A stretch of 36,684 nt of DNA, taken from positions 1-36,684 of the IMG/VR virus record IMGVR_UViG_3300031998_000033; one strand, written 5' to 3'. Each line of letters begins with the position of its first letter. Position 1 is the stretch's first letter. The notes below the pieces were generated by a model. That model had not been told where the DNA came from, made no database searches, and saw only the letters and a list, made by a program, of their open reading frames with translations. Source of the stretch: a virus. Taxonomy: Duplodnaviria > Heunggongvirae > Uroviricota > Caudoviricetes. The translations under genes and the position numbers were made by a program. Below, piece by piece: positions 1-36,684 of this stretch.

Positions 1-318
1 GTCGTTAAATAGATTGAGCTTGCCCATTTTCGCAAGGGCGATCTTCAAATAGACTTTAGATATCTTGCGCGTCGCTTTAGGAACATCCTGCGCTTTGTTT
101 ATAACATAGATGATCTTGGCGATATGGTCGAGCTGGTATCTGTCGAAAACTTCAGTCTGGGTGGACTTCAGCTGAGGATGCACTGTCTTGATCGCATACC
201 ATCCTTCACGCTGGTATACCGGTCCGATCGGATTTGGCACCGATACGCCATCGATTGTCAAAGCGTCAGGCGCATATACAAGCTTATCGTGCTATATCTT
301 TCCGTAGTTGGTGTTCAT
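1..318 (-). CDS. hypothetical protein, probably virion-associated (3'-truncated by window edge)
   Basis: ATG at 318 after AAAGGA; MNTNYGKI(TAG)HDKLVYAPDALTIDGVSVPNP...; open to position 1 when TAG is read as Gln; lies directly downstream of tail-like genes. Confidence 0.6.
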
Positions 319-363
319 TCAGCAAATTTCCTTTTTAATACTATACAAATTCAAATTCAAACG

Positions 364-2175
364 TCAAGAGATTTTTGTTATTCTGACTGCGAACGTACTT
401 GAAGCAGCAAGTCTGTCTATCTCTACGCATTCTATCAGATATGCCCCGCCTGTTGTCAAAGATGAATTAGACGAAAACACTTTAGTCGTGACGCTTTCGC
501 CAGTCCTTTGAAATAAGAGATTCCAATTGCCAGGCTGCATCAGATAGATCCTGAACATTCTGGAACGCGAAGTGTTTCTTCTTCCTGTCTGCGGATCAAT
601 CCATGACATGGCTGGAAGATTGACTGTTAACGTCCCTCCGGACGACTGCTCATATACGTCGACCAGATTGACCGTATGATCATTTACCCATACGTTATAT
701 GCAGAATTGATTAAAACAGGAGACAGATTTGCCAATCTCCATGCGCCGTTGTTTTCTTCAAAATAGTCCAGAGTAACAGCGTCGCCAGAACTTAGAGGAT
801 CTGCGACATCCGTAATCCTGCCGCCAAGAGCGGAAAAATAGTCAGACGAGATCTTGTAGATCGCATTGTCTTTAAGCTGGTCGTCGGCAACCATTGCGCG
901 GAACTGGTTCATCGACGTCAGGCACAGAATCGACAGATCCGTCTATTCAGTCACGACGCCGCCGGCCTGATTGAAATGCTGTACAGTAACCGTAGACCCT
1001 TCGTCGAACGGATTGCCGTCAACCGCGTATATCTCGGTCGGAGAAAGCTGGTCGGCGGCGGAAAGCTCCATATACCTGGCCTTCGTAACGACGTTGACGA
1101 CAGCCGGCTGAAGGCTGGACGTGCCGTTCGAGCTCAAAAGATATTTGCCGGGCCGATTTTGCATTTCCTCGATATCGTCGAGCGTGGCGAGAGTCTTTAC
1201 GACGCCGCCGGACGAAATCTGCCCGTCGGCGCCTATGCCGTTGCCGGAACTGTCCTGTATATGGTCGACGTAGTCGCCGGATACGACATATAGCGCGTTC
1301 GAAAGAATACGGCCCTGCGCGACCAGGTCGTCGTAGTCTTCCTTCGACATGTGTATGATGCTAAGGTCCTGCGACTCGCCGTCAATGTATACCTGAGCTC
1401 CTATCGCGGAAATATCAGCCTTAAGATCTAATGCGGCGAAAATTTGGTCAGAAGACGATGTTTCAGTTTTCTTATAATAATTGTTAAGCGCAGACGAAAT
1501 GTCCGATTTAACCGCATAGCCTTCTGAACTCAGAGACGCCTTCGTATTCGCGTACGTTTTATACGTATTGGGAACAGCCGTCAGATAGCTTCCAACAGGC
1601 TGCTTGCCGTTAAGGGCCGACGATATCTGCTGCGCCGACGAAGTTTCAGTCTTCTTATAATACTGCGTGTCGTCGAAAAAGCTAGAAAGCTAGACGCTGA
1701 TCGGAGCGGTGCCGGAATCGGTATTGAACTTAAAAATAAGCTGAGTTCCGTTTAGCTCAGCGGATGAAAGCATGCCGTCTTTGATAAAATCAGAGCAGTC
1801 TACCTGTGAAACGGCTTCTCCAACAGAAAGACTCAACTTTTTCGTATTGGAATTATAACCGATCTTCACGCCGGTAAACCTACCGTCAACATATCCCTTC
1901 GTCGCGGCGTCCTACGCGTCCGTAGGATCCAGCACGTTTTTGATTTGCTGCCCGTACGCGTTGACGTAATCAGACGACACGACATAAAGCGTGTTCGGAT
2001 CGACAGTTTCAGTCGCGACAAGCGTCCAATAATCCGTATTGGATATATGGCGCATCTAGACATCGGCCAGCTGTCCGTCTACCGATATGGCGGATCTGGT
2101 CACATCTCTTACTTTGTACGTCTGGCCGTTGCTCGCTTTTATGGCCGACAATTCGTTACTTGCTAATTCTGCCAT
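364..2175 (-). CDS. tail fibre / virion structural protein with internal repeats (603 aa under code 15)
   Basis: Single frame from ATG 2175 to TGA 364 with 4 in-frame TAGs, joining track ORFs 943-1350 and 364-912. Contains the phage tail motif IKNVLDPTDA(TAG=Q)DAATKGYVD, DCSDFIKDGMLSSAEL, two YYKKTETSS repeats and four Y/F-x-x-L/M-V/S-A...L/I-Y-x-V/I modules. Confidence 0.7.
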
Positions 2176-2182
2176 ATCTAAT

Positions 2183-2188
2183 ATTTTA
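2183..2188 (-). promoter_or_regulatory. putative -10 hexamer (TAAAAT) 7 nt upstream of ATG 2175
   Basis: Minus strand reads AG-TAAAAT-ATTAGAT-ATG with no Shine-Dalgarno. Confidence 0.35.
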
Positions 2189-2213
2189 CTAAAATACCTT
2201 CTGTTTCGAATTA

Positions 2214-2332
2214 GCCTGATGCGGCTTAAACCGCATCAGGCCGCTCCACGCTGCACCGCGTAGAAGTCGAAACTTCTCCCGACGCGGGCAGTTCGCGGCC
2301 AGACGACGCTTGCGAATCGCACCGCCGGCCGC
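2214..2332. other. GC-rich structured intergenic element with three consecutive hairpins
   Basis: Perfect 11-bp stem GCCTGATGCGG/CCGCATCAGGC (2214-2241); long bulged stem closing a TTCG loop on the minus strand (about 2251-2290); GCGGCC/GGCCGC stem enclosing a small TGCG/CGCA hairpin (2295-2332). Confidence 0.55.
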
Positions 2333-2342
2333 TTCAATTCCG

Positions 2343-4208
2343 TCAGCCTTCCACTGGCGAGGTGAACGGATATACCATCCAGTCCGCAGATGTCCCGGTA
2401 AACAGGGCGTCGTGCGTGTGGGCGGAAATTTCCACCAAACCGGAGATATCGCCGGTAGGACTATAGGTTCCGGAAAGAACCGTTCCGGTAGGAGCCTTCG
2501 CCGTGCCGTTGAACTGCGCGGTGACAGATGCCTCCGTTCCGGTGAATACGGCCGTCGGTGTGACCTTGCCGGTAGATATAGGAATCGTAACATTCGTTTT
2601 GTTGATCTCGATATCGCCGGACGGCGCGTAGGTCGTCGTGAGGACCTGGCCTGTCGGATTTGTCGTCTCGCCGATGAAGTCAGCTTTGACCTGGCCGGCC
2701 GCGATGGTGCCGATCGCGACGGTTTTCGCGACGTTCGTGCTGGAAAGCGCGATTTCTCCCGCGGCGGTAAAGTCTGTCTTATTCTCAGTTCCGGTAGGAG
2801 CCTTCGCAGTGCCGTTGAACACAGCCTCCGGCGTATAGGAACCGATCGCAACCGTCTTCTCGACGCTGCTGAGTTCGACCGCCACGCCGCCTGCCGGAGT
2901 AAAGGCGTCGATAACGACGCTGCCGCCGGTAAGAGCAGTGCCGGACGCCGAGATTCCTATAGGCCCGATTTCGGTCGTCTGGCTGGAATACGCCACATTA
3001 ACATGCTGCTTCGCCGCCCCCATGCTGGAGACCACAGTATTGAAATTGAACTTCAGCACGTTCTACTCTACATACGCGTTTCCGGCGACAGTAGACTCGG
3101 ACGAAACCTCCGTCACGTAGTCGACGTCGTTCGCGGATAGGACCGGAAGCTCGGTAAGCTTGCCCGTAAAGGTCGTCTAAGCGGTCTAACCCGTAAACGT
3201 ACCGGTCGGAGTCACTTCCGATCCTGTGAATTCAGCGGACACGACTTCCTTGACGGTAACAGACTTATCGCCGATATCGATCGCGGCGCAGCTTACCTGG
3301 CCTTCTGGCGTATACGCGGCCGGCGTGTAGCCGGTCATTACGTTTTCAATGGTGTTGCCGGAGAACGTGGCCGACGTGACTTCCGTCACAGTGACGGACT
3401 TGTCGCCGATTTCGATGGCGCCGACGCTGATCGCGCCGGACGGAGTATACGCCGCGGGCGTATAGCCGGTCATGACGGTCATCTCGGTTCCGCTAAATAC
3501 CGCCTCTCCGACCTGCTAAACGGTAATGTCTTCGACGCCGATGCTGATTTCGGCGCAGCTAATCGTGCCGGCCGGAGTAAAGGCGTCGACAACGACGCTG
3601 CCTTCCGGCGTATAGTCGTCAGGCGCGTATCCGGATACGACATTGACGCTGTTCGTCGCCGTGAATGTCGCGGTGACATCCGCAGACTGCGAGGCGGTTG
3701 GAGAGATACTGACCGTGCCGCCGGGCTTTACGTTGACAATGCCTTCGTCCGCGAACGCGAACGACTTAAGCTGGGACGCATTGCCGAACTCGTTCCATTT
3801 TTCGCCGTCCCAAATGTATTCGCGGTCTTCCTTGCCTGTCAGCGTGCCCGGGACGATGACCATATCGCCGCCCTTGCCGGCTACTACGGTAAGCGTAGTC
3901 TCGTCGGCCATGGTGATGGTCGTCGACGTAAGGCCATCTTCGATCGTCTGACCGGTCTTGCCGCGGTAGCTTACGCCACCGGCCACAATACTGCCGAGCT
4001 TCGCGACTTCGGCGGAAATCACATCGGCGTCGCCGCTGAGTTTGTCTATGCGGACACGGTTGTCGAACACGCCTAGGCGCGCCGTACCGTCGGCGATATC
4101 GTACCTACGGTCGAGCTCGACCGCGTTGATGTCGCTGCTTACTATTACCAGATCAGCCGAAAGATCGGCTATATTGTCCCATCTTGGATCGGGATTGATG
4201 TCAGCCAT
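2343..4208 (-). CDS. Thr/Gly-rich beta-strand repeat protein, probable tail fibre/spike (621 aa under code 15)
   Basis: ATG 4208 with AGAGG RBS; 4 in-frame TAGs join track ORFs 3516-4208, 3186-3482 and 2343-3059; ends TGA. N-terminal GDMVIV...KEYIWDGEKWNEFG-like module, then about 10 (Y/F/V)TPxG-type repeats. Confidence 0.7.
2482..2820. repeat. 33-nt direct repeat (2482-2514 and 2788-2820, 1 mismatch) encoding FNGTAKAPTGT
   Basis: gttccggtaggagccttcgc(c/a)gtgccgttgaac present twice within the fibre gene. Confidence 0.85.
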
Positions 4209-4308
4209 GTGTACCTCTTTTATTAATTAGCGCGTTAATTCGTTGTTGAAGCATTTGTATTGCGCCGGATACGCATGCTTTATTCTAGTATTAAATTCGT
4301 CCATTCCG

Positions 4309-4722
4309 TCAATCGTCCGTCGAAAGTATGAGGGAATTCTCATTGACGTACGCCTTTACCCTGTTGTTAAGCCTGCTTATTATGGCAGTAAGCTGCTAAT
4401 CCAGATTTTCCTTGAACTGGTTGAAAGTCCGCGTCCTGACGAACTCATCCTGGCCGATCTGCTGAATTACGGCGTCGACAATCTGCTGAAGCGTATCTGG
4501 ATCGGTGACGAACGAAAGATCCGCCGAATCGGCCCACATACTATAATTGTTCTCACCCGTCGCGCGGCCTATTTTTATTTTGAAATTGTATTTTTCATCG
4601 GCGTCCGTTACTGGATTATGACGGACGTCGTATCCTATGCCGACTTCGCCCTCGTACAAAGGCGTAAGTGACCTTCTCCAATTCGAATAGGTATCGCACC
4701 TAAGTTTTATTCTAGCCGTCAT
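4309..4722 (-). CDS. major tropism determinant N-terminal (Mtd_N)-like tail protein
   Basis: MTARIKLRCDTYSNW...LYEGEVGI...FKIKIG matches the RxxTxxNW...L..GE.G...KxKIG pattern; extends through TAG 4396-4398 to TGA 4309. Confidence 0.6.
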
Positions 4723-4730
4723 AACGTTAT

Positions 4731-5072
4731 TTACTCCCCGGGATCTTCCTCGGGATCTGGACCGAGCTCTCCGGCGCCGCCGGCGTCTATGAAATAGTCG
4801 TGTTGAACGACGGCGTCGAGCAGGTCGGCCACGTCTTCCGGATGGTCCTTCACGATGTCCATCACATAGACGGACCAGCCCTGCTTGAAATCGTCGCTGG
4901 AAAGAATTGTTTTATTCGTATACCGGACCATTTGCTACATAGTCATCTTCTTCGACTTGTAGCTTTGCCCGTTTTCTGCCTCTTTGTCGGATACGAGGAG
5001 CAGATCGTCTTCGCTTATGTTCGAGCTCGAGATTTCATCGAGCTGCGACAGTTTGGTAGGGTTAACAGCCAT
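4731..5072 (-). CDS. small virion/tail-associated protein
   Basis: ATG 5072 with AAAGG RBS; MAVNPTKLSQLDEISSSNISEDDLLLVSDKE...SKKMTM(TAG)QMVRY, a KxSEL...DDLLLV...SKK-type N-terminus common in phage tail proteins; ends TAA. Confidence 0.55.
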
Positions 5073-5426
5073 CGGTTCCGCCTTTCGCCTGGATCAAAAC
5101 GCGGGCGGCGGCACGATCGATGTAAAATTTTGAAAAACGGTAATTTTTAATATAGACGCATGTCTTTTCGATATGCGTCCTAGAAATTCCGTATGTCAAA
5201 TATTCTGTCATGTCAGCTGGCCGTCGTCCTTATTTTTATTTACTAATCCAATTACGGTAATTTTGTATTTGTTAAAAACTTCAGGTAAAATATAATCTAA
5301 ATCGGTTAGCTGATTCATTGCTGTACCGCAATAGGCAGTATGCTGTAAAATTGAATTGGCATAATATCTTGATGTTCCACGAAGATTACGGCAGTCAATC
5401 AACCAATCAGTTAATTTAAAATAAGT

Positions 5427-6785
5427 ATGAATAAACGAACAATTAGCGATTTTTATCAGAAAGACGTACCTGCGTACGCGTCATATGACAATCTCCGCAA
5501 ATTATGCGGGATAGACGGACTCAAGCTGTCCCAAAGGAAGATCGTATACACGGCGTTTAAAAGGTGCCGGAATGACTGGATAAAAACGGATACAATGTGC
5601 GCGCAGACGCAAATTGATACTAATTACATCCATGGCGCCGCCAATCTGGAAATCGTGATAGACGGCCTGGCGGCGTCGTATGTCGGGTCCAACAACTTTC
5701 CCCTTCTGACGGGCAACAGCGGCGGTTTCGGCTGCCGGATATCGCCGAGGCCGTCGGCGGGGCGCTATACCAGGGTAAAACTGTCCGATGTCAGCAAGAT
5801 GCTGTTTTCTGAACCGGACGAGCATATTCTGGAAAAACAGTTCTTTGAAGGCCAATACATTGAACCGAAGCACCTCTTGCCCGTATTTCCTGTCATGTTC
5901 CTGAACGGGGCGGAAGGCCTGAGTACGGGATTCAGCCAGAAGATATTCCCTAGAAATCCGGACGAGGTGATAGAGTATGTGAAGAAAAAGTTGTCCGGCA
6001 CGGCGAATCCGCGCATGGCGCTGCTTCCGTGGTTCAGGGGCCATCTCGGAAAAGTGGCGGTGAACCCCGAGACGAACATAGCCGAAAGTTTCGGCGTCGT
6101 AACCAAAAACAACATGAATTCGTACACGATAACCGAGCTTCCTATCGGGACAGACTACCAAAAGTATATCGAGCAGCTCGACAAAATGTGCGAATCCGGC
6201 CTGATACAGGACTATTTCGACAAATGCGACTCGAAGACCGACACGATACTGTTCGAAATCAAAACGACACGCGACTTCACGAGGTCTCACGACACGGAAC
6301 GCAAGCTGTACGACGCGCTGAAGCTCGTCAAGAGCCTGCCCGAGACGTACTGCTGCATCGACGAGTCCGGACGCGTCAGGGAGTTTTCGTCGGCGAAAGA
6401 AATACTCGACGCGTTCATAGACATGCGCGTAAAATACTATTCCGCCCGCCGCGACTACCTGCTAGCGTCGATAAAGAAGAACATCGAAATCCTATTGTCG
6501 AAATACCTATTTATCAAGGCCATAATAGACAAGACGCTGAAGATATCCAACCGCAAAAAGGCCGACATCGCCGCCGACATAGCGAAGATAGACAGAATCG
6601 TGAAAGTGGATGATTCATACGACTATCTTCTCGCCATGCCCATCCACCAGCTCACGAAGGAGAAACTGGACGAACTGAAGTGCAAGATCAACGCGGCGAA
6701 GGATGAATTCAAGAAGACCAAGGAGACGGCGCCGGCGGACATGTGGCTCGCGGACATGTCGCCTCTGCGGAAAATCCTGAAGTAA
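5427..6785 (+). CDS. type IIA DNA topoisomerase, DNA breakage-reunion subunit (T4 gp52 / GyrA-ParC-like)
   Basis: DGLKLSQRKI, YIHGAANL, catalytic SAGRYT, PVMFLNGAEGLSTGFS, ITELPIG; 452 aa with no GyrA C-terminal pinwheel, as in phage gp52. Confidence 0.92.
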   Translation: MNKRTISDFYQKDVPAYASYDNLRKLCGIDGLKLSQRKIVYTAFKRCRNDWIKTDTMCAQTQIDTNYIHGAANLEIVIDGLAASYVGSNNFPLLTGNSGGFGCRISPRPSAGRYTRVKLSDVSKMLFSEPDEHILEKQFFEGQYIEPKHLLPVFPVMFLNGAEGLSTGFSQKIFPRNPDEVIEYVKKKLSGTANPRMALLPWFRGHLGKVAVNPETNIAESFGVVTKNNMNSYTITELPIGTDYQKYIEQLDKMCESGLIQDYFDKCDSKTDTILFEIKTTRDFTRSHDTERKLYDALKLVKSLPETYCCIDESGRVREFSSAKEILDAFIDMRVKYYSARRDYLLASIKKNIEILLSKYLFIKAIIDKTLKISNRKKADIAADIAKIDRIVKVDDSYDYLLAMPIHQLTKEKLDELKCKINAAKDEFKKTKETAPADMWLADMSPLRKILK

Positions 6786-6839
6786 GGAACCCGCCGGACG
6801 CGAAGCCGCTTCCGGCATAAATACATCGAAAGCAAAGAC

Positions 6840-7049
6840 ATGGACAAACAAACTAGAAGTAGCGGCGGAATAGGGTGCCTGACGGTAATAGGCATAGTGT
6901 TTCTTGTGTTGAAAGTGCTCGCGATAGAGCCCGTCGCGCACTGGCCGTGGATATGGGTACTATGTCCGTTCTGGATACCGCTCGCGCTCGGACTGCTGGT
7001 TATGATAGGAGCCGGCATAGTGATGGTTATGTTCGGCCCCTGGAAATAA
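6840..7049 (+). CDS. small two-TM membrane protein
   Basis: GGIGCLTVIGIVFLVLKVL...WPWIWVLCPFWIPL, a hydrophobic Trp-rich small protein type frequent in phages. Confidence 0.7.
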   Translation: MDKQTRSSGGIGCLTVIGIVFLVLKVLAIEPVAHWPWIWVLCPFWIPLALGLLVMIGAGIVMVMFGPWK

Positions 7050-7073
7050 AGGCTGGAACACGGCGTTTTCAGG

Positions 7074-7109
7074 ATACCGCGCGGGTTTTCCGCGCGGTAT
7101 AATTTTTTT
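7074..7109 (+). terminator. putative Rho-independent terminator hairpin overlapping a -10 box
   Basis: Perfect stem ATACCGCGCGG/CCGCGCGGTAT (7074-7100) followed by AA and 7 T; TATAAT at 7098-7103 lies 6 nt before ATG 7110. Confidence 0.55.
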
Positions 7110-7724
7110 ATGAAAATAAGATCGGATTTTGTCTCTAATAGTTCCAGTTCAAGTTTTGTCGTACGTGCGGACGAAAATACTCCGGATATTTTCAAGCAGG
7201 AACTGTTGTCTGCGTCGAAATTTTTTCAAAAATTCTTCATACGCGATACGATAGACGCTCTTTCTTGGACTTTATGGAATACCGACATGCCTTATGCCGA
7301 TGTGAAAATAACGTTCGTCACACCTGAAAAATTCATTTCCGAATATTTAAACGGCGCCAGTAAAGACGAATTTTCGAGAAAACGCTATGTACTTGAATCT
7401 GATCGGCCTATCGCGGCAAAATTCATGGCATACCTGGAAGAACTTGATTGCCTTAAATTTCCGGACATTGAAATCTACCGCGCAGGGAAACTACGGCGGG
7501 ACTACCGCGTAAACGTTGTCAATGCCCTAGACAAAATAAGAGATAAAATCGAGCGTAAGGCCGAAAAACTGCTCTACCGTATGTCCATGAATATGAAAAA
7601 AGAACTTAAAGGCATGATGTCGGACTGGAAATTCTGGTACGCTGAAATAGAAGACCGTAATGAACCCGCCGGATGGAAATCGATTAAAAAACTGAAATGG
7701 GGACGCGTTTTCAACAATCATTAA
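7110..7724 (+). CDS. hypothetical protein, 'MKxRxDFVSNSSS' phage family (copy 1)
   Basis: N-terminus MKIRSDFVSNSSSSSFVV; ends TAA. Confidence 0.75.
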   Translation: MKIRSDFVSNSSSSSFVVRADENTPDIFKQELLSASKFFQKFFIRDTIDALSWTLWNTDMPYADVKITFVTPEKFISEYLNGASKDEFSRKRYVLESDRPIAAKFMAYLEELDCLKFPDIEIYRAGKLRRDYRVNVVNALDKIRDKIERKAEKLLYRMSMNMKKELKGMMSDWKFWYAEIEDRNEPAGWKSIKKLKWGRVFNNH

Positions 7725-7734
7725 AGGCGGCCAT

Positions 7735-8055
7735 ATGACGAAAAAGCAGATAGTTTCGAAATTCCTCGACTGGGCGACGAAAAAAAACCTAACGCCTGAA
7801 ATCGGATATCTTGACCGGAACGGGAAAAACAGTGGATACAAGATATTCCGCCTTATGGAATATTTAGACGGAATGCCATGGACTACTGTATGTTTCGAAA
7901 TATTTCCGCCGGGCACGACGGAAATGACCGGATGGTATTCGATCATAAAGCGCAAATGCGCGGACACGCTCACCATAGACCAGTTCTCCGAGGTCGGAAT
8001 AGGCAAGTCCGCCTCGATAGAGGAATTCATGCTTAAACTGGAAATAGCCGGTTGA
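7735..8055 (+). CDS. hypothetical protein
   Basis: 106-aa ORF packed in operon, AAAGG RBS, ends TGA. Confidence 0.6.
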   Translation: MTKKQIVSKFLDWATKKNLTPEIGYLDRNGKNSGYKIFRLMEYLDGMPWTTVCFEIFPPGTTEMTGWYSIIKRKCADTLTIDQFSEVGIGKSASIEEFMLKLEIAG

Positions 8056-8067
8056 AGGAGACACGAC

Positions 8068-8751
8068 ATGCATATGTTTTTAGTAAGAGGCATTCCTGGT
8101 TCAGGTAAGTCGACGTTTGCAGCCAAGATGTTCCCGGGCGTATTCCATATCGAGAACGACATGTTCCATATTAAAAACGGCGAATACAGATTCGACGCCG
8201 GGAGACAGAAGTCCGCCGTGTCATGGTGCATGGACATGTGCAGGACGGCGCTTGCGAACGACATGGACGTCGTCGTATCCAATACGTTTACGAAGCGGCG
8301 GTATGTCAAGGCGTATATGCTGATGGCGCTCGAAGCCGGCGCCGAATTTACCGTCTACAAGATGAACGGGTCGTTCGAAAACTCCCATTCCGTGCCGGAA
8401 GACGTCAAGAAGAACATGGCGGCGGGCTGGGAGGACTGGAACGGCGAAATCTGCGTCTATCCGAACATGAACTTCGACAAAGACGATCCGGCATGCAGAC
8501 TTTACATGCTTACGAAATTAAAAGTCGGCGACCATGTCCTGGCGGAGCGTCGGATCGGGGGAATCGACGTCGTGCATATAACGGCCGACGACCCGTTGCC
8601 CGAAATGGAAAAAGCCGAAGCCGTGGTAACGGACATTCGCCAAGGAACATACGACTATCTTAACGTCTACCTTAAATTTCTCGACAACGGCAAAGCCGGA
8701 ATCGCGATGTCCGGGGATCTGGAAAAAATCCCGACTGGCCAAAGTAAATAA
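8068..8751 (+). CDS. P-loop kinase (AAA_33 / N4BP2-like polynucleotide kinase fold) with C-terminal extension
   Basis: LVRGIPGSGKST Walker A, VVVSNTFT, NSHSVPE; AAGGAG RBS. Confidence 0.8.
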   Translation: MHMFLVRGIPGSGKSTFAAKMFPGVFHIENDMFHIKNGEYRFDAGRQKSAVSWCMDMCRTALANDMDVVVSNTFTKRRYVKAYMLMALEAGAEFTVYKMNGSFENSHSVPEDVKKNMAAGWEDWNGEICVYPNMNFDKDDPACRLYMLTKLKVGDHVLAERRIGGIDVVHITADDPLPEMEKAEAVVTDIRQGTYDYLNVYLKFLDNGKAGIAMSGDLEKIPTGQSK

Positions 8752-8794
8752 TTCGGGAAAGACCGTATTCGTCATTGCGGTCTTATGGGCTGTA

Positions 8795-9682
8795 ATGAAA
8801 AAAATCTGTATATTCGCGCTGGCTTTTCTGCCGGCTGCGTCATGGTCGTTGGAAACTTATTTAACGTTGGAAAACGACACGTTCATTCCGCACGGGGGCG
8901 ACCATGACTACACGCACGGTACCGGACTGGAAATAGTCGACTAGCCGTGGCATTACAAGCTCGGCTAGAACATATATACCCCGTCCGACCTGCGCCCGTC
9001 GCAGCATATAAAAGGTGACAGGCCGTATGCCGGAATACTCTATGGCGGCATAGGATATGAATTCTTCATGGATCCGAAATCGCCGTGGACGCATTACGGC
9101 GAGATAGACTTCGGACAAATAGGCCCGCATTCGTATAGCGAGCAGTCTTAGAAGATAATCCACAAATGGCTTGGCTGCAAATACCCCAACGGCTGGGACA
9201 ACCAGCTGCACGACGAGTTCGTCGTCAATGGGCAGTGGTGGACGAAGTACAACTGGTACCTATGCGAATATGTCGCGCTCGTGCCGCGCGGAGGGGTTTT
9301 GGCCGGAACGGTACAGGACGCGGCCGAAGTCGGATGCGACCTGAAGGTCGGATGGAACATGAAAAACGACGTCGGGAACCAGATAATGTTCTCCGCCCCG
9401 GCGAAACGGTCATGGCTCGACGACCTTAGCGTATGGGCGTTTGTAGGATGCGACGAGCGGTACTACCTGTACAACCACTTCCTAGAAGGAAGCTTGTTCA
9501 ACGACAAGGACGAAGACCTGAAAGTCGATATCGAACCGTTCGTATTCGAATGGCGATGCGGCGCGGCGCTGAGGTACAGATCGTTTTTCGCCCATTACTA
9601 TGCCGTATTCCGGCAAGACGAATTCAAGCATTAGAAAAATTCCCCTGACTACGGGGGAATCTGTATAGGCTGGACGTTCTAA
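8795..9682 (+). CDS. lpxR: lipid A 3'-O-deacylase LpxR family outer-membrane beta-barrel (DUF2219), 295 aa under code 15
   Basis: Signal peptide MKKICIFALAFLPAASWS; ENDTF, DYTHG, G(TAG)NIYTP, GDRPYAG, GQIGP, S(TAG)KIIH, PNGWDNQL, EFKH(TAG); C-terminal IGWTF beta-signal; ends TAA; 4 TAGs. Confidence 0.8.
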
Positions 9683-26263: not shown

Positions 26264-27390
26264 TAAAAAGTTCCTCCATTTGGTAAATTGCCAAATAATT
26301 GAGATTGTTAAGTTTTGCTGTCTTCCGTTTTACGACATCACTTCCAGCCCAAACTAAAACCTGCTATTGTTCAATCCAATTCTTCGGATTAATTTTACAA
26401 TGTTCTAAGTGCTCGATATGAATTGGATTATTTTCATCAAAAGGCTCAATATAATGTGTCGGAAAAAGATTCAATTCAATAAACAAATCAAGTGATTTAA
26501 TATAAAAATCGCAATTAAACGGATATCTAACATCATCTCTAAACTATCTAATAACATTGTCTTTACCATATACATCGCACAAATATTCATAACAATCTGT
26601 TTCAGGTTTACTTGTATTAAATGTATGATTAACGCGTTTAGAACATTGAATCTTATCTTGTATGCTTTTATTATTGCGCATGCTGTTTATTTCGTCAGAC
26701 GCAAGATAAAATTGAACGTTATATCTTTCCAGCATAGTACGCTTTGCTTTCTCTCTATCTCCGCGTACGCCATTTCCGCCATAACGCTGCTTACACGTCT
26801 CAGTCGCCTTATGCGCGTTATTCCAATTATAGTCTCCATATTTATTCAGCTTAGTCTGTTTTATCGACTGCTGATGGTGAGGATCTATGCATCCACATCT
26901 ATGACAACAATGATCGTTGTAGCCATTCTCATTCAAACTGTGTTTCCCCAAAAACGGAATAAGCTTGCCGCAAACTGGACAAATTGGCTTTGATTTCATG
27001 TTGAATACCAACCAATAAACCCTTTCAACATCAGATTCAGCGTTTGGAAACATCTTACGTAAACTGTTAACCAAATGTATATTGCTTTTATTTCTGGTCA
27101 ACCACGTATAATAACCTTTCGGACTTGCCCAGAAACGAGCTATTATTTCCTATTTATATTGTTCTTTCATGATGCTTCTATATTATATTTACCAATATAG
27201 ATTAGCATAACTTACGCCAATTATTCATCTATAACAGTAAACCCGAAAAGAGCTGCCTCTTTAGGGTTCTTTTCTACCCATTCAACTAGTCGCTGCATAT
27301 CTTGTTTTGACAAAGAATCAAGATATTTCTGTTTTTCATTTCGGTCAAATTCGATTCCAGTAATATCATTACTCCAATTTGTCGATACGT
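26105..27390 (-). mobile_element. AT-rich homing-endonuclease cassette with flanking co-converted nrdD sequence (boundaries approximate)
   Basis: Abrupt switch from C/G-ending codons to A/T-rich sequence near LYPNY (about 27390) and back near KDGRGN (about 26105); endonuclease ORF in the middle. Confidence 0.65.
26238..27170 (-). CDS. free-standing putative homing endonuclease (Zn-finger + repeat domain + C-terminal PD-(D/E)xK/Vsr-like nuclease), 310 aa
   Basis: ATG 27170; CPVC...HCCHRC, K.T.L.KYG/RYG repeats, SKPE, VIR(TAG)FRDDVRYPFNCDFYIKSLDLFIELN, DVVKRKTAKLNNLNY; 3 TAGs; ends TAA 26238, overlapping nrdD-b start by 26 nt. Confidence 0.75.
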
Positions 27391-28573
27391 AGTTGGGGTA
27401 AAGGCGCAACGATGTGGACTTGAGCGCGAGGCGGAAAAGGTCGTAGTTAGGGTCACCCTCTTTGCGGTTGACGCCCTTCATACACTGGAAAATGCCGCAC
27501 GGGAATATCGCGGTCTTATGGAACTTGCCGCATCCTTTGATGCTGCCCTCGATCAAGGCCTTGGTGACCATCCGGCCTTCCGGAAGAGTGCATGTCCCGT
27601 AATTGATGGACGTGAACGGAAGCTGGCAGCCGCTGCGGCTCTGGAGCGTGTTGAGGTTGTGATACATCCCCTCCACGGCCTGGTTCAGCTCTTCGACGGT
27701 TTTTTCCATCGCGTATTTATACGCCGGAAGCTCGTGGTTATACCAGTCCGAATCGATAGAAAGCTACTTTATCTCGTCCCTGGACAAAGGCGACTTGCCA
27801 GAATGCTCTTCTTTAATCTTTGACTTGCTCATCAGATCAATGAACCGCAAACCATCGAAGTAGTGCTTATGAAAGCTAAGTCTTACGTACGGCACCATCG
27901 TCCAGTCGAGGTGTGTGGCCGCGACGCCGCCGAACTGCTGCAGGCTCTGGAGCTGGAAGATCACCGCGACGAGCTGCATCGCGGTATTGATAGATCCGGC
28001 CGGCCTGACGTCGGTCTGCCTCGTGTTAAAGCCCTCCGCGAGGAGCTTGTCGAACGGTATGGAAAGGCAATTATGATTGCCAACCGCATATGCGTCGAGA
28101 TCATGGATATAGATCTCGTTATTGTTGTGGTTATGCCTGGCCTTTGTCGAGATAAGATGCTCGAGCGCATAGCTCTTCATCACATAGCTCGCGGCTTCGC
28201 CAATGCGCCCGCCAAAGCTGAACTCGTCGACATTCGCGTTCTAGTTCTAAATGTTGGATGCGGTCAACTTCTCGGTCAAAGCCTTGCTGGTCCTAACGCG
28301 CTCTTTTTCATAACGGTATGTAATATACTGTTTTGCGACCTCGTATCCCTACGCTTCCATAAGCTTACGCTCGATGGCGTCCTCAAGCGCATCAATGCCG
28401 ATGGGCTCCTCCATCGCCTCACATGCCGCAAATACAGTATCAGTAATGCGCGTTATCTGCTTTTTCGTCAGTCTGTCTTCTTCTGCTACCGCCATATTGG
28501 CGTTGCATATCGAATCGAATATTTTCTTTTTTGTAAGCAGTTCTGTTTTGCCGCTCCTTTTAACCACATTCAT
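27221..28573 (-). CDS. nrdD: class III ribonucleotide reductase, N-terminal half with ATP-cone (NrdD-a)
   Basis: GGAGG RBS, ATG 28573; VVKRSG ATP-cone, ASNI(TAG)N(TAG)NANVDEFSFGGR, IYIHDLD, GNHNCLSIP, QFGGV, HNLNTLQSRSG.QLPFTSINYG, IFP..IF, LYPNY; 4 TAGs; ends at true TAA 27221. Confidence 0.93.
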
Positions 28574-28589
28574 AATATCCTCCGGCACA

Positions 28590-28626: not shown

Positions 28627-29040
28627 TCAGTTTATAAAAACCTCCGGCTGCGGCACAAGATCGGGAACTTGGCATCCGTTAAGGTCGAACATGAACTCCG
28701 CTCCGGCGACAGTGTTGTCGCTCTTGCAAATGGACAGCCTGATCTCGGTCGGCTCGTCGTTTTTCACCGCATGCCTTATATAGGCTATAAGCTGCGCGAC
28801 CTAAGCCAGTACAGTACGATCTCCGAACATTTTGATTTCCGCGTCTGCAAGCGTAATATTGCGCAGTACGTTGTTCTTAATCTATTCGTCCAAATCGCTT
28901 GCGGCCATCTCCTGCTCTTCGGCCTTATCCATTTCGGCTAGGCTCTATCCGGTTACATCTATGTCCGCATCTATGTCTACTACGTTAATTTCTTCCGTTT
29001 CAGCCGCAATGGCATTCTTCTCAAATTCTTCATTATTCAT
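28627..29040 (-). CDS. acidic hypothetical protein (137 aa; missed by standard code)
   Basis: MNNEEFEKNAIAAETEEINVVDIDADID...; open frame with 3 TAGs, ends TGA. Confidence 0.65.
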
Positions 29041-29199
29041 GTTTTATATTATTCCAATCTAGACACACGGACCTGACCGAATGAACAAACACTTATTACT
29101 TACTAAGTCTTCAAACTTCTGTATCCTGTAATTTTTATTTAGAAAATTTCTAGAAAATTTAAAAATTCTAAAAACTCATATTCGATTCATATACAAAAT

Positions 29200-29898
29200 T
29201 CAGATTTCAAACGTAAACGGACTGTATCTGACGCAATATGACTCATCTACCCGCGATACGTTAACAACAACCGTATTCCAAAGCTTAAACGGCTCATGCG
29301 ATCCACTATGTATATGACCGCATACGACATACCGCGGTTTTTTGTCGAACAATGCATCAGAGAGTTCAACTGAACCGAATTTCCTCGAGTCTTTTCCGTA
29401 TTCAAGCGATACGTCTCCGAAATAGCCCGGAAGATTCGGAGGACTGTGCGATATCAGAATATCTACATTTTTCGGAATATCCGCGAACTTACGGCTAAGC
29501 GTTCTCGAATCAGCCTCGAATGCCCACTGTCCGTTTATGACCGGCACCCAGGGAACTCCGTAGAACCTTATTCCGTTCACAACGGCCTATGAATCACAAA
29601 GGTATTTTACATTACCGGGCCAGTCTATATGCCAGTCTATTCCAGGATATTTCGAAGTAACGGCCTTGTCCAAACACAAATCATGATTTCCCGCTACGAC
29701 GACAAATATCGTATCTGAAAACTAGCCTGCCCATTTTCTGAACTTATAGTATATCCAATCGCGCTAATCTTTCGTCTGCCATTTGCCAAATCCCGTCTAA
29801 CGCGTAAAATCTCCAGCTATGACGCATATGTCATATCCTGAGACGTCAAGGCCTTCAAGCATACCGTGCATATCGGATATAGCGGCTATCTTAATCAT
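29200..29898 (-). CDS. calcineurin-like metallophosphoesterase
   Basis: ISDMHG, IAGDF, AGNHD, LISHSPP, VCGHIH; 4 TAGs in the N-terminal half. Confidence 0.88.
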
Positions 29899-30739: not shown

Positions 30740-30745
30740 ATTATA
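30740..30745 (-). promoter_or_regulatory. putative -10 (TATAAT) 6 nt upstream of nadE ATG
   Basis: AAGG-TATAAT-TTAAAT-ATG. Confidence 0.45.
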
Positions 30746-31904
30746 CCTTCGAGCCTAAAAAACGAACAGCGGTCTCCATGGCCGCCTTTACGGCGTCGTC
30801 CATGTCAAAATACCTATACATGCCGAGCCTTCCGCCGATAATAAGATTATTCCCGTATTTCTAGGCGGCATATCCGGCATATCTTGCGTACAGTGCGGCG
30901 CTTTCGGAATTGTTGACGGGATAATATCTTTCTTTTCCGACGGCCCAGTCGTCCGGGTACTCGCGCTGTATGACTGTAACGCCGCTTTCCATAACGGCGG
31001 AATCTTCCGGATGAAAATGTTTGAACTCATGAATGCGCGTAAACGGAACGTCGGCGTCTACGTAGTTTATCGTTGAGTTGCCCTGATAATCGCTGGCATA
31101 AAGCGTATCGGTCTCGAACCGCAGGCTTCTCCACGGCAAAGGCCCGAACCTATATCCGAAAAGCTCGTCAAGCGCGCCTGTAAAAATCACGGTTTTTCCG
31201 GTCTTTACGTCATTTTCAAGATCATCCTAACCGTATCCAACACCCAGTTCAACCCTTATGCCGGAATGATCGAGCATCCTGTCGAACATCCGTCCATATC
31301 CGTCGAGCGGAATACCCTGGTATCGGTCGTCATAATAACTGACATTGTAGTTGTACCTTATCGGCAGACGTCTGATAATGGACGCATCGAGCTCTTTTGG
31401 ATCGCGGTTCCACTGCTTCGCCGTATAATGCCTAACGAAAATCTCGTACAAATCCCGGCCGATCAGCGACACGGCCTGTTCTTCGAGGTTTTTCGGATTA
31501 GCCGGATCTATACCCATCGCCTTAACATCGGCTTCGATCGCCTCGGCCATAAATTTCTTCGCGTGCGCCGGCCCGTCTATGCCCTTGAAAAACCGCTCTA
31601 TTATGCCGAGGTTGAACGGCAGAAAATACTTTTTCCTGCCGTGCTTCGCGATGCAATGGTGCTGGTACTGGTTGAACTTCGTAAACCTTCCAGCGAAATC
31701 CCATACCGCGTCGTCGTCTGTATGGAATATATGGCATCCGTACCGATGAACCTCTATTCCCCTTTCATAGTATGTCGCGCAGTTCCCGCCTATGCAATCC
31801 CGCCGTTCCAAAACACTTACGCGGCGGCCGGCATCGGCTAGAATCCTCGCGCAAGTACAGCCGAACAATCCGGCGCCGACTATAACAACGTCTTCAGTAT
31901 CCAT
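30741..31904 (-). CDS. glf: UDP-galactopyranose mutase
   Basis: IVGAGLFG, IGGNC, HRYGCHIFHT, YTAKQW, RYQGIPLDGY, IFTGALDE, LPWRSLRF, TRIHEFKHF, YYPV, GGRLGMYRYFDMD; 2 TAGs join three track fragments; ends TAA. Confidence 0.95.
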
Positions 31905-31917
31905 CGTCCCCCTTAAA

Positions 31918-32664
31918 TCAGCAATATAACCATTTATAATCCGTTTTAATGGCATGCCAAAGCTGATTCCCGGCCAAAGCCTATCTAGACGGCGACTTTT
32001 TACATATGCTGTAGTCTGGACACAGCACGCCAAAATCCTTCAGATCACATATCATAAGGCCGTCCTTGACGCATGCGCTAATATACCCGAGTTCGCTGTG
32101 CAGGTTGGCCGTCTTGTTGAACTCTGCGAAAAACGCGTTGATAGACTAAGACGCCTTCTTCGAAAACCTTGCAATATTATGCAGGCATTGACGCCAGAAC
32201 GGCAGATTCTTGTCGCTGTCCAACCGCCTCCACCATATCCATCTGCCGTCAGGCTTTCCGGGAGAAAACATTTCCGCGATGAAATCGAATCCCTAGTCGT
32301 TGAACGGCATTCTGAAAAACGCATCCCATCCGCCGCTGAAACAGACATCGTATTCGATATGCCACATATAGCCGTAATCCGGAAACAGCTCGAAGAACTT
32401 CATAATGGGCCAGTTATACTTGAATAGATACGACGGTACGCCTCCAAGCTTCATACGGTCTTCAATGTCTTTTTCGCCATACCGCACGAAATCTATGCCG
32501 TCCGGCAGAACCTGATCGTTCTTACCCGTTACGTCGATAGCCCATTTGACGTCGTATCCGATTTTTTCGCATCCGGCCTGAATATGCCTGAACCGCCGTA
32601 TAACCTCTTCATCTACTATATGCGAATTGAACAAAACACATGTCTTCGCGCATATACCATTCAT
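31918..32664 (-). CDS. DUF3405-like putative glycan-modifying protein (paralog 1)
   Basis: YGYMWHIEYDVCFSGGWDAFF motif, C-terminal LWHAIK; 3 TAGs; in sugar operon. Confidence 0.55.
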
Positions 32665-32665
32665 T

Positions 32666-33451
32666 TTAAAATCCTCGGTCCTAAACGGTTTTCCATTTTA
32701 TATCGAACTTCACCGGATGATACAGCGTCCCGGGCTTGAAATCCGAAAAGTCTTTAGGCAATTGCGGCCTAAATATAAAGTAGTTGGAATCGGACTTCTC
32801 AATCTTCCAACCGCGTCTTGCGACGGAGGTCGGCCAAGCCATCTCGAAGAACATATACCGGTTGACGTTGAATTCCTCGTAGAAACGGCATATTTCGTCA
32901 AAAGTCCTGTCAGAAAGCCTGCTGCAGCACATCAGTCCTTCGCATACGCAGCCTTCTCCGACGAGTTTCTCCATTACGTTTTTGTCCACCTAGGCGTAAG
33001 CCCACCAGTCAGGATACTCGGCGTATAACTTGAACGATGGCGCGCTTGTAACCAAATCGGCGCAGTTTCCGTCATACTGTCTGAAAAACGCAGTCCAATC
33101 CAAACAGCATACGTCGTATTCGATAAGCCAGACATAGTCGAATTCGCCGGAATGGTCGTACCGGAATGGAAAGACAGCCATCGGCAAACAGTTCTTATAC
33201 GGATCCCGCTGCGGGTTATACACCACATGCGGGAAAAGCTTCTTGAACCTGTCGTATGAAAAACAGTAAAAATCGATCCCGGGACAAAGCCTCGGCTGCG
33301 CCGTGTTCCCGACGTCCAGCGCGTAATAGACAGAATACCCGAGCCCGCGCCCCGCGTCCCGGATGAGACTATATCTGTACAGCGATTCGTCGTCTATCTG
33401 ATGGTTAATAAACAGAACGGCGGTTCGTTTTCCTAAATGTGCGTCAATCAT
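32666..33451 (-). CDS. DUF3405-like putative glycan-modifying protein (paralog 2)
   Basis: FDYVWLIEYDVCCLDWTAFF, FFEMAWPT, LYHPVK; 2 TAGs join track ORFs. Confidence 0.55.
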
Positions 33452-34241
33452 AATACCCCTTGTTCGGCAGCTTGTCGCTTCCAAGCCCGTATTTATTTAT
33501 ACTTTCATGCATGGCGTCTTTCCATTTCTTATATCCGTCATCTTCAGTGTCGAAATGTACGATCATCCTGTCCGTGCAGCACAAGGCCTTTTCGGCGGGA
33601 AAAGTCATGAACAGCTTGTACTGGATGATGCAGTCATCGGCGCTGTAGATACATGCCGTCCGGTTCCATCCGCAGGTTTCCGAATATCCGCCGACAGCCG
33701 CATAATGATCCATGCGCATGGCCATGATTCCACCGCCGACGCCGTGCTGGTCTTTCAAGACGTCATAGTTGTATCCGCCGGCTTCGACAGTCTCGAACGG
33801 CCCATTGTTCTAATAGAAGTTTACAGTTTCATTAGTCATGGCCTCGTCCGAGAAAAACCTGTATCCGACGTATTTTGGATTATGCAGCTCGAATACGGCC
33901 CGCAGCTGGGACAGAAGCGCGGTATCCATTATCTGGATATCCGAATCCATATTGACCAGTATGTCGTCTGGCGCCGGGTTAAACATCTGCGACATAAGAT
34001 CGAATGTCCTGTTCATCCCGTACGCTTTGCCCATGTTCCGCTTCGACATCATAAGGAAATCCACCAGGCCCGACTTGTAATATTTAGACAGAAGCGAACC
34101 GGATTTGTCTTTCGACCCGCTGTCGTATACGCCTATGTACGTATCGGCGTCTTTTACGGACTTAAGCCGGCGTATCGAACTTTCCAGCGTCCCGTTGCGC
34201 TCGGCGTTGTAGTTGCATATCGTGAAAAATATTTTCTTCAT
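33444..34241 (-). CDS. GT2-like (GT-A fold) glycosyltransferase
   Basis: FTICNYN, VYDSGSKD, NMGKAYGMN, VNMDSD (DxD), GGGIM, GGY...YSADD; one TAG at 33810. Confidence 0.8.
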
Positions 34242-35863
34242 ATAGTCTTCTCTTTCTTATCGGTATCCGGCCTCTGGTACGGCGACGGGATATTGTATAC
34301 GTCGATGGCGGTATCTATCACCTTTGCAGTTCCGGACTCGCGCTTCATGTATATCCAAAAAGACGTCATGCGTTCCATAATGAACCCCATGCCGCGCTTC
34401 TGGTATTTGTCCCGCGAATCGAACTCGTTAAGCGAGAAAACGCCAAGTTCCAAGTCGATGCACTTTCTTAGAAATTCCCAGCATTCGAAAAACATGTCGC
34501 GATGCATGACGAATATCTCCATCGGATACGTCGTATTCTGATCCAAGAACTCCTTGAATTTACCGGCAAGATCCGGAAACGCCTCGTTAAAAGCCTGCGT
34601 AAACCTATCGAGGTCGGATTTTACATGGTACATCCTGTATTCTTCACCGATAGGCTTCGGTAATTTCCTGACTTCGCACTGTATAACGTCGGGCTTTAAC
34701 GCATACCTGTTATACTTCAAAACCCTTCTGTAATGGTCAAAACCGATGTATTCCGGATTTCCGAGGGCGGCGTAGTTAGAGTACGTCCACTGCATGACCG
34801 TCATCTCATTGATGTATACGTTGTACTTCGAAAGGCCTCCGTCGCCGGAATTATCCGTAAAGTCCATGCCTTCGGAAAAACCGCCGCCTCCGACCTTGAC
34901 GTATATGCCGCCCTTCCTAAACTCCGGCAGGATCTCCGTCGGAAACGAATAGCTGACAACGATCTTCAAATTGTCGGGATCGCCGACGCCGACGGACTCC
35001 GCGTAGCGCCCGAACTCCTTTCTCGTGTTCTCGTAGTTGACCTTCATCCAGGACTTGAACGGCAGTTGGAACTTCTGCCAGTCGAACCACCTGCGCTCCC
35101 ACGGCTTCGCGCCGACCATATGCTGGATGACGCATTTCTCGGCGAGGTCCATCTGCCCGGCATAGCCGCACATTTTCGCGAAATAACTGTACTGTTTGTA
35201 TCCGGCCATTATCGCCGACACGTTGTACCGCGGATCAACGAACACGACATTCCCCTTGAACGTCATATTCAATATCGACTGGTCTTCGTAGCCGCGCGTC
35301 AGCATAAACTCCGGCGGCTCCTGAAGAAGACGAACCATCTCCAAATCAAGGCCGTCCCTCGCTATGGCCTATACGTCGAACAGGATGACGCCCGCGTTGA
35401 AATACCTTTTCACTCCGCAGTCTTCAAGCTCTTTGCGGTTAAAGCACGCCATGGAAACGTCGTCGCATACGGCTGCGTACCGGCCCTTCAGATCAAGATC
35501 GTACAAGGCGTCTACGCCGAAATTCGTAACAAGTGTATCGCAGTCCAGATATAGGCATCTGCCGACACCTTCCTCTTTGAGAAGCAAGCAGAGCAATGTC
35601 CTTGCATACGTCATCTTAGACAGCGAAAGACTGTGACCTTTACTGAGAAGCCGGTCCAAGACGTCGGTTGAATATACAGTGAAATCCACATCCTTGAACT
35701 TATACCGGCCAAGTTCGGCACGGCACATATCCGCGCAGCCATCGGCCATCAAATGCACGTGAATGCGCTTCCTGCTGTATTTCCTGAGGGAAAATATAAT
35801 ATACAACGCATATTGGAAATAATCCTATGTGCATGCGAGGAATATATGCATAATATCATTCAT
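34238..35863 (-). CDS. bifunctional glycosyltransferase: N-terminal GT8 + C-terminal DUF4422 (GT111, Galf-transferase-like), 541 aa
   Basis: GT8: YARTLL, LYLDCDTLV, YFNAGVIL, DQSILN, HMVGAKPW. DUF4422: DNSGDGGLSKYNVYINEMT..QW, YIGFDHYRR, EIFVM, R..GFIMER. 2 TAGs. Confidence 0.82.
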
Positions 35864-35911
35864 ACGTTATATTATTGTATTTTATCTGACCATGTGTTAA
35901 CGGCATCCATG

Positions 35912-36684
35912 TCAAACCTCCGGCAAAATAACCTAGAGATTGCGCCATGAATATTTCTAAATGTAATTGACGAGATATACCCGCCATGAAGTAGCCATTT
36001 TTTTGTCGCATATGACCTGCATGTTGAGATTGCCATATAGCCTGTGTATCTCGTCTATATTTCCAGTAAAAGCCAATACATTGCCATGGTTTAAAAAGAA
36101 CTTAACAGGACTGTTGTCAAACACTTCAGACAGACGCCGCCCGTATTTTTCGTTTATACGCCTGTTATACCCTTCGATGGCGTTTTCTCCGTTGTTTACA
36201 TTGGACAGGTCTAAATTGGTGCGCTCAAGCTCTACGCCAACGTCAAGACCGTATGAATACGTATAATCCAATCCTATGCATGGAACGTAATTAAGCGTAG
36301 ACACAAGCCAAAACCACAGCTCATCGTGCAGCCCGTTCGTTATATACATCATCTCGTCATAGTCGAAAAGCATGTCCGTAAACGCGCGGGGAGGAAACAA
36401 ACATCCGTTAGACAAATATTTTCCGTATTCTATCTGATTCAATTTTACATCGACGATATTCTTGTATTTGATGCAGCCGTCAACGTCCAGCACCACAGGA
36501 TTCACCTCATGCGATATAATGCAGCCGGGCTGTCTCATCCACATCTAATAAAGCTGCTCGAGCGTCTCCGGCGGATATATCTTGTCATCGTCGAAACACG
36601 CTATAACGTCGTCCGGATGATCTTTATACACCCACACAAGCTTATTGCACGAACGCCACTTCGCCGGACAGGTTTTTATCCGTA
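35912..36684 (-). CDS. GT-A type glycosyltransferase-like protein (5'-truncated)
   Basis: KL..VYKDHPDDVIACFDDDKIYPP..LEQLY(TAG), NGCLFPP, HDELWFW; ends TGA 35912 after read-through. Confidence 0.65.

Follow-up and report, generated by a model that had tools for sequence, protein, structure and literature searches.

Does the triplet TAG still end genes in this phage, or has it become a codon? The question is raised by a 36,684-nucleotide stretch of phage DNA (hereafter the window), bases 1-36,684 of the linear, 105,047-bp virus record IMGVR_UViG_3300031998_000033 (the contig). A preliminary description, made from the letters of the window, estimated about 70 in-frame TAGs in about 30 genes of a phage of ~50% GC and read them as glutamine (Gln) under genetic code 15. 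The counts are 75 TAGs in 31 of 46 genes; the window has a GC content of 48.7%, and the whole contig one of 49.5%. Our analysis shows that UAG is translated as glutamine in this large, T4-like phage and that only TAA and TGA terminate. The best explanation of the data as a whole, to which we give a probability of roughly 90%, joins this code-15 reading to an inferred switch of code and to a placement of TAG early in genes.

TAG is a sense codon

Genes were mapped by tiling open reading frames (ORFs) ranked by a codon-usage log-odds score, a simple codon model trained on long ORFs of translation table 11. The start codon was taken as the first ATG, GTG or TTG past the upstream stop, and three genes of atypical codon usage were added (one ADP-ribosyltransferase-like, one homing-endonuclease-like and one from a glycan-synthesis cluster). 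The resulting map has minus-strand genes in 1-5072, a plus-strand operon in 5427-9682 and minus-strand genes from 9704 onward. Its 46 genes comprise 11,697 codons and leave 15 genes free of TAG; 74 of the 75 TAGs lie inside the window, because one gene starts beyond its end. TAG makes up 20% of all glutamine-type codons and is commoner than CAA (CAA 57, CAG 234, TAG 75).

Re-predicting genes under table 15 instead of table 11, a check that the preliminary description had proposed, gave the gain expected of a reassigned stop. Greedy ORF tiling of the window yields a coding density of 0.80 under table 11 and of 0.94 when TAG is read as sense, as against 0.84 for TGA and 0.875 for TAA, and the median gene length in this tiling rises from 148 to 241 amino acids with TAG as sense. 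The map scored by codon usage moves likewise from 0.76 to 0.89. At 49% GC, the density of stop-to-stop ORFs that ignore start codons is a poor discriminator, and a flank test was used in its place together with the scored map. This test counts stops with 40 codons on each side, in the same frame, that are free of the other two stops and score as coding on both sides. It finds 23 TAG, 4 TAA and 3 TGA in the window, so that TAG occurs six to eight times more often than either, and 61 TAG, 8 TAA and 17 TGA in the contig. Recoding of TGA or TAA was rejected on the same grounds, namely the smaller gain in density and the scarcity of such codons flanked by coding sequence. Pfam domains span the TAGs of ThyX, NrdD, LpxR, GLF, GT8, metallophosphoesterase, caspase, dUTPase and sigma-factor genes.

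Every mapped gene ends in TAA or TGA, as had been claimed for the complete genes, an outcome that follows from the mapping method. A TAG falls within the last seven codons of four genes, compared with 2.1 expected by chance. For two genes, the sigma factor at 19391-20155 and the gene at 35912-36883, the alignment with a relative (L006) runs past the near-terminal TAG. In the NADAR gene (10786-11283), a single codon separates TAG from the TGA after it. Termination at TAG is thus unsupported in the mapped genes, with the NADAR gene as the one that may prove an exception. Public code-11 gene calls on a related 277,570-bp contig (see below) cut LpxR to 111 and ThyX to 135 amino acids, each at a TAG.

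TAG stands for glutamine

The genes that bear most directly on the identity of the inserted amino acid are the following.

364-2175, minus strand: tail-fibre-like gene, 603 amino acids (Pfam Phage_T7_tail); TAG at codons 40, 88, 162 and 411.
8795-9682, plus strand: LpxR-like lipid A deacylase gene, 295 amino acids (Pfam LpxR, E=4.6e-60); TAG at codons 50, 58, 119 and 280.
11287-12057, minus strand: ThyX gene, 256 amino acids (Pfam Thy1); TAG at codons 41, 75 and 84.
15526-16065, minus strand: dUTPase gene (Pfam); TAG at codon 109.
25175-26263, minus strand: NrdD-b (Pfam NRDD positions 259-562); TAG at codon 310.
27221-28588, minus strand: NrdD-a (Pfam NRDD positions 2-248); TAG at codons 80, 114, 116 and 275.
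From 30741, in the glycan-synthesis cluster, minus strand: UDP-galactopyranose mutase (GLF); TAG at codons 269 and 391.

The mapped genes were aligned to six-frame ORFs of seven relatives, comprising five from metagenomes (L005, L006, L008, L010 and L011) and the genomes G001 and G002. The latter two are distant (their DNA polymerases are 38-40% identical), complete and bounded by direct terminal repeats, with lengths of 414 kb (414,060 bp) and 434 kb. An aligned codon exists for 69 TAG sites; opposite these, the relatives have 26 CAG, 17 CAA and 11 TAG, and no other codon exceeds nine occurrences. Glutamine codons stand opposite TAG in 33 of 77 comparisons in the window (43%) and in 43 of 142 in the contig (30%). 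In the same alignments, the phage's own CAA and CAG codons face glutamine in 39% of cases, and codons for any other residue do so in at most 4.2%. TAG therefore has the profile of a glutamine codon, as the tabulation of residues suggested in the preliminary description was meant to reveal.

An empirical likelihood built from these conditional frequencies places glutamine first, 93 ln units ahead of glutamate; this lead overstates the certainty because the aligned relatives are not independent, although the ranking is clear. The closeness of TAG to CAG by mutation cannot by itself account for this pattern, because CAA is two mutations away and was nevertheless found 17 times. The exchange also runs in the other direction, with seven sites at which L006 has TAG and the phage has CAG. 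Eleven TAG/TAG pairs show that relatives, which come from independent samples, share TAG at the same positions.

Individual sites point the same way. ThyX TAG84 (11806-11808) lies just before the RHR motif, at a position that is glutamine in 133 of 150 homologs, each representing a cluster at 50% identity, and the ThyX of Thermotoga maritima likewise has a glutamine opposite it, within RQWFRHR. Of 120 close relatives, 106 have glutamine opposite NrdD TAG114 (28247-28249) and all 120 opposite TAG116 (28241-28243); in six relatives read as DNA the codon is CAG or CAA, save for valine at one site in one relative. LpxR TAG58 and TAG119, in the motifs G*NIYTP and S*KIIH, are opposite glutamine in Salmonella LpxR (3FID), and codons 58, 119 and 280 are CAA, CAG or TAG in relatives. 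For all three proteins the claim of conserved glutamine positions was borne out, and the TAGs of ThyX, NrdD, LpxR and the tail-fibre gene had each been located correctly. Two further sites had been overstated. Tail-fibre TAG88 (1912-1914) aligns to serine in weak depolymerase homologs, its sole structural matches, and the TAG at the zinc site of NrdD (NrdD-b codon 310) is opposite glutamate or threonine in distant solved NrdDs and opposite glutamine only in close relatives. Taken together, the gain in coding density, the glutamine-like profile in relatives and the conserved glutamines of ThyX, NrdD and LpxR support a predicted assignment of TAG to glutamine, that is, code 15.

TAG is unevenly distributed among genes

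The preliminary description saw recoding in replication, metabolic and structural genes alike. All three classes are indeed touched, yet the recoding is not uniform. The longest TAG-free run in the window extends over 1,152 consecutive coding codons (4938-8939), which has a probability of 0.03 when 75 TAGs are placed at random. It includes 5427-8751, part of the window's only plus-strand operon:

5427-6785, plus strand: topoisomerase II A-subunit-like gene (Pfam); TAG-free.
8068-8751, plus strand: AAA_33 kinase-like gene (Pfam); TAG-free.
Within 5427-8751, plus strand: three small ORFs; TAG-free.

This segment may be an early unit written in the standard code. The number of TAG-free genes in the window (15 versus 11.8 expected, p=0.10) is not significant, whereas 50 such genes in the contig, with 34.5 expected, exceed chance (P<0.0002). 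The contig-wide excess is due to a TAG-free block of 12 kb at ~61.7-73.4 kb. The contig thus has a subset of genes that lack TAG beyond chance, as in mixed-code phages.

A possible early placement of TAG within genes

The position of TAG along genes differs both from uniform (Kolmogorov-Smirnov p=0.006) and from that of CAA and CAG (p=0.004). Codons 1-60 hold 30 TAGs in the window where 17.7 are expected (p=0.001) and 52 in the contig where 37.2 are expected (p=0.005). The enrichment is about 2.3-fold at codons 21-60, where CAA and CAG are at expectation. Because the excess falls in codons 21-60 and not in 1-20, misplaced start codons do not explain it. When only codons covered by homology are considered, TAG at codons 21-60 accounts for 15 of 36 in the window (5.9 expected, p=0.0003) and for 23 of 69 in the contig (10.0 expected, p=7e-5). 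The early bias is also present in the complete relative G002 (30 versus 16.9 expected, p=0.001). We treat this bias as a lead rather than a result because the bin was chosen post hoc. The text of Borges et al. does not discuss the position of the recoded codon within genes, and a full-text search of the literature was likewise empty; the early bias is possibly a new detail.

The mechanism of the code switch is modeled on published work on recoded phages. A glutamine-charged tRNA that reads UAG, whether its gene lies in the unsampled remainder of the genome or it comes from another source, would outcompete the release factor RF1 of the host once it is expressed. Genes that carry TAG, two thirds of those seen here, would be made only after this switch, while TAG-free genes such as those of the 5427-8751 operon and the 12-kb block could be translated by a naive host with the standard code. 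A TAG at codons 21-60 would cause premature translation to abort after a short peptide. A more specific joint proposal, that TAG acts as an early translational gate, at which ribosomes in a cell before the switch would release a short and harmless peptide, and that the decoding factor is non-canonical or not encoded by the phage, is tentative and on balance doubtful.

Evidence against this explanation and the search for a decoder

Several observations weigh against this explanation. NrdD TAG275 faces glutamate in six of six relatives and dUTPase TAG109 faces cysteine in three of three, although such exceptions are expected because true glutamine codons are themselves conserved in only 39% of cases in these alignments. 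The early bias of TAG is absent from G001 (23 versus 21.4 expected), and the bin of codons 21-60 was settled on once codons 1-60 had been inspected. The 105-kb contig yields no tRNA of any kind and no Rfam family in ARAGORN and Rfam searches. Moreover, the domain of RF-1 and RF-2 (PF00472) and that of glutaminyl-tRNA synthetase (PF00749) are absent from the contig and also from G001, G002 and two further relatives, G005 and G009. The preliminary description had named a tRNA-Gln(CUA), an RF2 homolog and this synthetase as genes to be sought, and none was found on the contig, which says little because the contig is only ~43% complete.

A low-threshold ARAGORN run gave only junk matches. A custom scan that looked for a CUA anticodon arm together with a T arm and an acceptor stem found nothing in the contig or in G001, and it recovered the suppressor tRNA of G002 as a control. 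The tRNA arrays of G001, G002, G008 and G009 (26-34 tRNAs) lack a CUA anticodon, and fragments from the closer relatives G003, G005, G006 and G007 contain no tRNAs.

The two complete relatives carry in-frame TAGs of their own, ~330 in 119 of 435 genes in G001 and ~320 in 128 of 480 genes in G002, with glutamine as the commonest partner; the TAGs of G001 mostly face glutamine in G002. The tRNA(CUA) of G002 (C1:410487-410576, minus strand) lies far outside the 34-tRNA array of that genome. It is 90 nt long, its U1 pairs with A72, and its CCA end is encoded. A U1-A72 acceptor pair is typical of bacterial tRNA-Gln. The extra arm, GCUU-CUG-AAGC, contains UUCUGAA, which matches the anticodon loop of tRNA-Gln(CUG). 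By analogy with G002, a phage-encoded glutamine suppressor is plausible for the phage of the window.

The complete relatives have further RNA genes of note. The tRNA array of G001 includes a tmRNA (transfer-messenger RNA) gene (L120 10038-10370) and an odd tRNA (L120 9854-9927) whose acceptor stem measures 8 bp and whose anticodon loop measures 6 nt. G002 has a comparable odd tRNA, in this case with a long arm (L121 9585-9681).

Alternative explanations

The host bacterium might itself use code 15, in which case the phage would simply match its host and no switch would occur. This is the best of the alternatives and nonetheless improbable. We know of no bacterium in which TAG has been reassigned to glutamine. 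The idea would account for TAG in replication, nucleotide-metabolism and structural genes alike, for the missing suppressor tRNA on the contig and in the complete relative G001, and for the predominance of TAG over CAA (75 versus 57), which hints at a reassignment both long-standing and thorough. It is harder to reconcile with TAG-free blocks beyond chance, which fit a need for standard-code translation of some genes, and the hosts of recoded phages in the literature use the standard code (bioRxiv 10.1101/2021.08.26.457843).

Still less probable is a sense codon for another amino acid, such as glutamate, lysine, serine, leucine, tyrosine or pyrrolysine. Conserved residues other than glutamine do stand opposite some TAGs, including glutamate at NrdD codon 275, cysteine at dUTPase codon 109 and the glutamate or aspartate of solved mutases that align to GLF TAG269 and TAG391. 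Glutamine is opposite TAG in 30-43% of comparisons, compared with the ceiling of 4.2% for the phage's residues other than glutamine; the likelihood deficit relative to glutamine is 93 ln units for glutamate, 107 for lysine and more than 129 for serine, leucine and tyrosine; and TAG occupies the position of the near-invariant glutamine in the ThyX motif. The sole suppressor tRNA found in a relative, that of G002, cuts both ways, with a long variable arm as in tRNAs for serine, leucine and tyrosine, set against an acceptor stem that starts with U1-A72 and the UUCUGAA arm matching the glutamine CUG anticodon loop.

Least probable of all is that TAG is still a stop and that the genes are broken, by decay of the element or misassembly, or are rescued by rare readthrough: table-11 fragments end at TAG, public gene calls follow suit and the contig lacks a suppressor tRNA by ARAGORN, Rfam and the custom scan, but two thirds of the genes would then be truncated (among them NrdD, ThyX before its catalytic RHR motif and, outside the window, DNA polymerase, portal and terminase), even though the reading frame continues past each TAG, with a coding score and with conservation in relatives, no gene is interrupted in this manner by TAA or TGA, and TAG positions are common to relatives from independent samples.

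Genome size, lineage and habitat

CheckV estimates the 105-kb record to be ~43% complete. The 452-amino-acid topoisomerase-subunit-like protein encoded at 5427-6785 has an identical copy, with the same neighbouring genes, on a 277,570-bp ENA contig (sample ERZ27257204) that reaches at least 4.5 kb past the left end of the window and whose code-11 annotation fragments its genes. This contig appears to derive from the same phage, and the real genome is probably at least 277,570 bp, because the protein is identical and its neighbours are the same. Relatives of NrdD at 65-87% identity are encoded on contigs of up to 455 kb.

Judged by its predicted hallmark genes, this very large phage is T4-like. 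Outside the window, the contig encodes a T4-type DNA polymerase (phrog_262), a T4-type portal (phrog_213) and a large terminase (phrog_2); the gp55-like late sigma factor gene at 19391-20155 belongs to the same T4-like set. The best cultured matches of the polymerase are gp43 proteins of T4-like cyanophages, at 26-27% identity, and a query of viral contigs with the portal protein gave no match. The habitat is probably a rumen or gut community; records of close relatives carry the ENA labels STEW19 and XIEF21, which we take to be rumen metagenome studies.

Comparison with known recoded phages

Earlier publications describe recoding of TAG to glutamine in phages, T4-like jumbo phages among them, and the phage of the window is no new kind of system. 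Code 15 had been recognized at the outset as known from Lak and crAss-like phages, where UAG has been proven to encode glutamine by metaproteomics (PMC9523058). The reassignment is the same here, demonstrated by peptides in those phages and known from sequence alone in ours. Our phage differs from them in its GC content of ~49%, its gp43-type polymerase ~26% identical to cyanomyovirus gp43 and its T4-type portal. Lak genomes measure ~540 kb, and the longest contig with the identical 5427-6785 protein is 277,570 bp.

Phages of standard-code hosts that read TAG as glutamine make variable use of it in replication genes and keep some genes in the standard code, and close relatives differ in the extent of recoding (bioRxiv 10.1101/2021.08.26.457843). 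The phages of Borges et al. resemble ours in each of these respects. Their clades are Lak, crAss-like, Jade, Sapphire, Agate, Garnet, Amethyst and Topaz, whereas the lineage of the window is T4-like, and their code-change module (tRNA, RF2) is not seen on the 105-kb fragment.

A 2026 survey in Animal Microbiome (PMC13037316) found that 8.75% of rumen jumbo phages are TAG-recoded, that ~40% of recoded jumbo phages have no recognisable suppressor tRNA and, as one example, that a T4-type Portal_GP20 gene falls into fragments under code 11 and is intact under code 15. The jumbo genome and the in-frame TAGs in hallmark genes are common to those phages and ours. Recoding in the survey is confined to some regions without preference for a type of protein; here it involves two thirds of the genes and 20% of glutamine-type codons.

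Read with table 11, this genome has two thirds of its genes broken, and functional or ecological annotation of an abundant clade of 250-450 kb phages depends on code 15. The clade offers a usable natural series on stop-codon capture, since its members show heavy, light and possibly different recoding. Should the early-codon bias prove general, it would give the published view of recoding as a means of timing gene expression a further detail that can be tested.

Three IMG/VR contigs of 112-135 kb and 28-31% GC (L017, L023 and L025) encode an NrdD 58% identical to that of the window. Their coding density rises chiefly with TGA as a sense codon, and they may be TGA-recoded, although this simple density test is indecisive.

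Other genes of the window

The remaining mapped genes with TAG sites, together with one TAG-free neighbour, are listed here.

2343-4208, minus strand: 621-amino-acid gene, with the best codon-usage score among overlapping ORFs and no match in Pfam or PHROG; TAG at codons 231, 341, 344 and 382.
13181-13570: gene with two TAGs.
16058-16366, minus strand: GroES-like gene, 102 amino acids (weak Cpn10 match); TAG at codons 34 and 43.
16339-16920: GroES-like (Cpn10) gene, 193 amino acids, with a real Pfam match and an N-terminal extension; no TAG.
17037-19323, minus strand: two genes (phrog_7162), one of 290 amino acids with TAG at codons 24, 177 and 240, the other glycosyltransferase-like, of 470 amino acids, with TAG at codons 5, 30, 42, 47, 53, 382 and 446.
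19391-20155, minus strand: gp55-like sigma factor gene, 254 amino acids (Pfam Sigma70_r2); TAG at codon 248.
23128-23880, minus strand: caspase-like gene (Pfam Peptidase_C14); TAG at codons 59 and 231.
23995-24693, minus strand: ADP-ribosyltransferase-like gene (phrog_832, RNA polymerase ADP-ribosylase, E=3.7e-6); TAG at codons 22, 87, 126, 144 and 191.
26238-27170, minus strand: homing-endonuclease-like ORF, 310 amino acids (phrog_3339); TAG at codons 7, 209 and 269.
Within 28627-29898, minus strand: 137-amino-acid gene; TAG at codons 32, 53 and 80.
29200-29898, minus strand: metallophosphoesterase gene; TAG at codons 34, 45, 59 and 104.
30741-36684, minus strand: glycan-synthesis cluster (Pfam), which includes GLF and the next five entries.
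31918-32664, minus strand: glycan-cluster gene; three TAGs.
32666-33484, minus strand: glycan-cluster gene; TAG at codons 165 and 268.
33444-34241, minus strand: glycan-cluster gene; TAG at codon 144.
34238-35863, minus strand: gene with GT8 and DUF4422 domains; TAG at codons 13 and 165.
35912-36883, minus strand: glycan-cluster gene that runs past the window end; TAG at codons 32, 113, 309 and 317.
1-318, 4309-4722, 4731-5072, 9704-10498 (DUF4406), 10786-11283 (NADAR), 20299-20979, 22000-22392 (WYL_2) and 22389-23087: genes with a single TAG each.

Whole genes had been described as hidden from standard annotation, namely a Mod-like ADP-ribosyltransferase, a GroES-like gene and most of LpxR. 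This holds for LpxR, as its short public call illustrates, and for the five-TAG gene at 23995-24693, for which the Mod-like reading is reasonable given its phrog_832 match. It fails for the better-supported of the GroES-like genes (16339-16920), which is free of TAG. The two GroES-like genes adjoin each other at 16058-16920, and the relative L008 has a full GroEL-like Cpn60 gene near NrdD. In L006, the gene corresponding to the 470-amino-acid glycosyltransferase-like protein has CAG at codons 30, 53 and 446 and TAG at codons 42 and 47.

The anaerobic ribonucleotide reductase is split into two genes by the homing-endonuclease-like ORF (25175-28588). L006 and L008 have a single unsplit NrdD of 747-754 amino acids, and other relatives have a 450-amino-acid NrdD-a as in the window. 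For the UDP-galactopyranose mutase ORF (30741-32664 region), the first start codon gives a 116-nt overlap with the upstream gene; the true start is probably near 31904, because homology begins at Met44.

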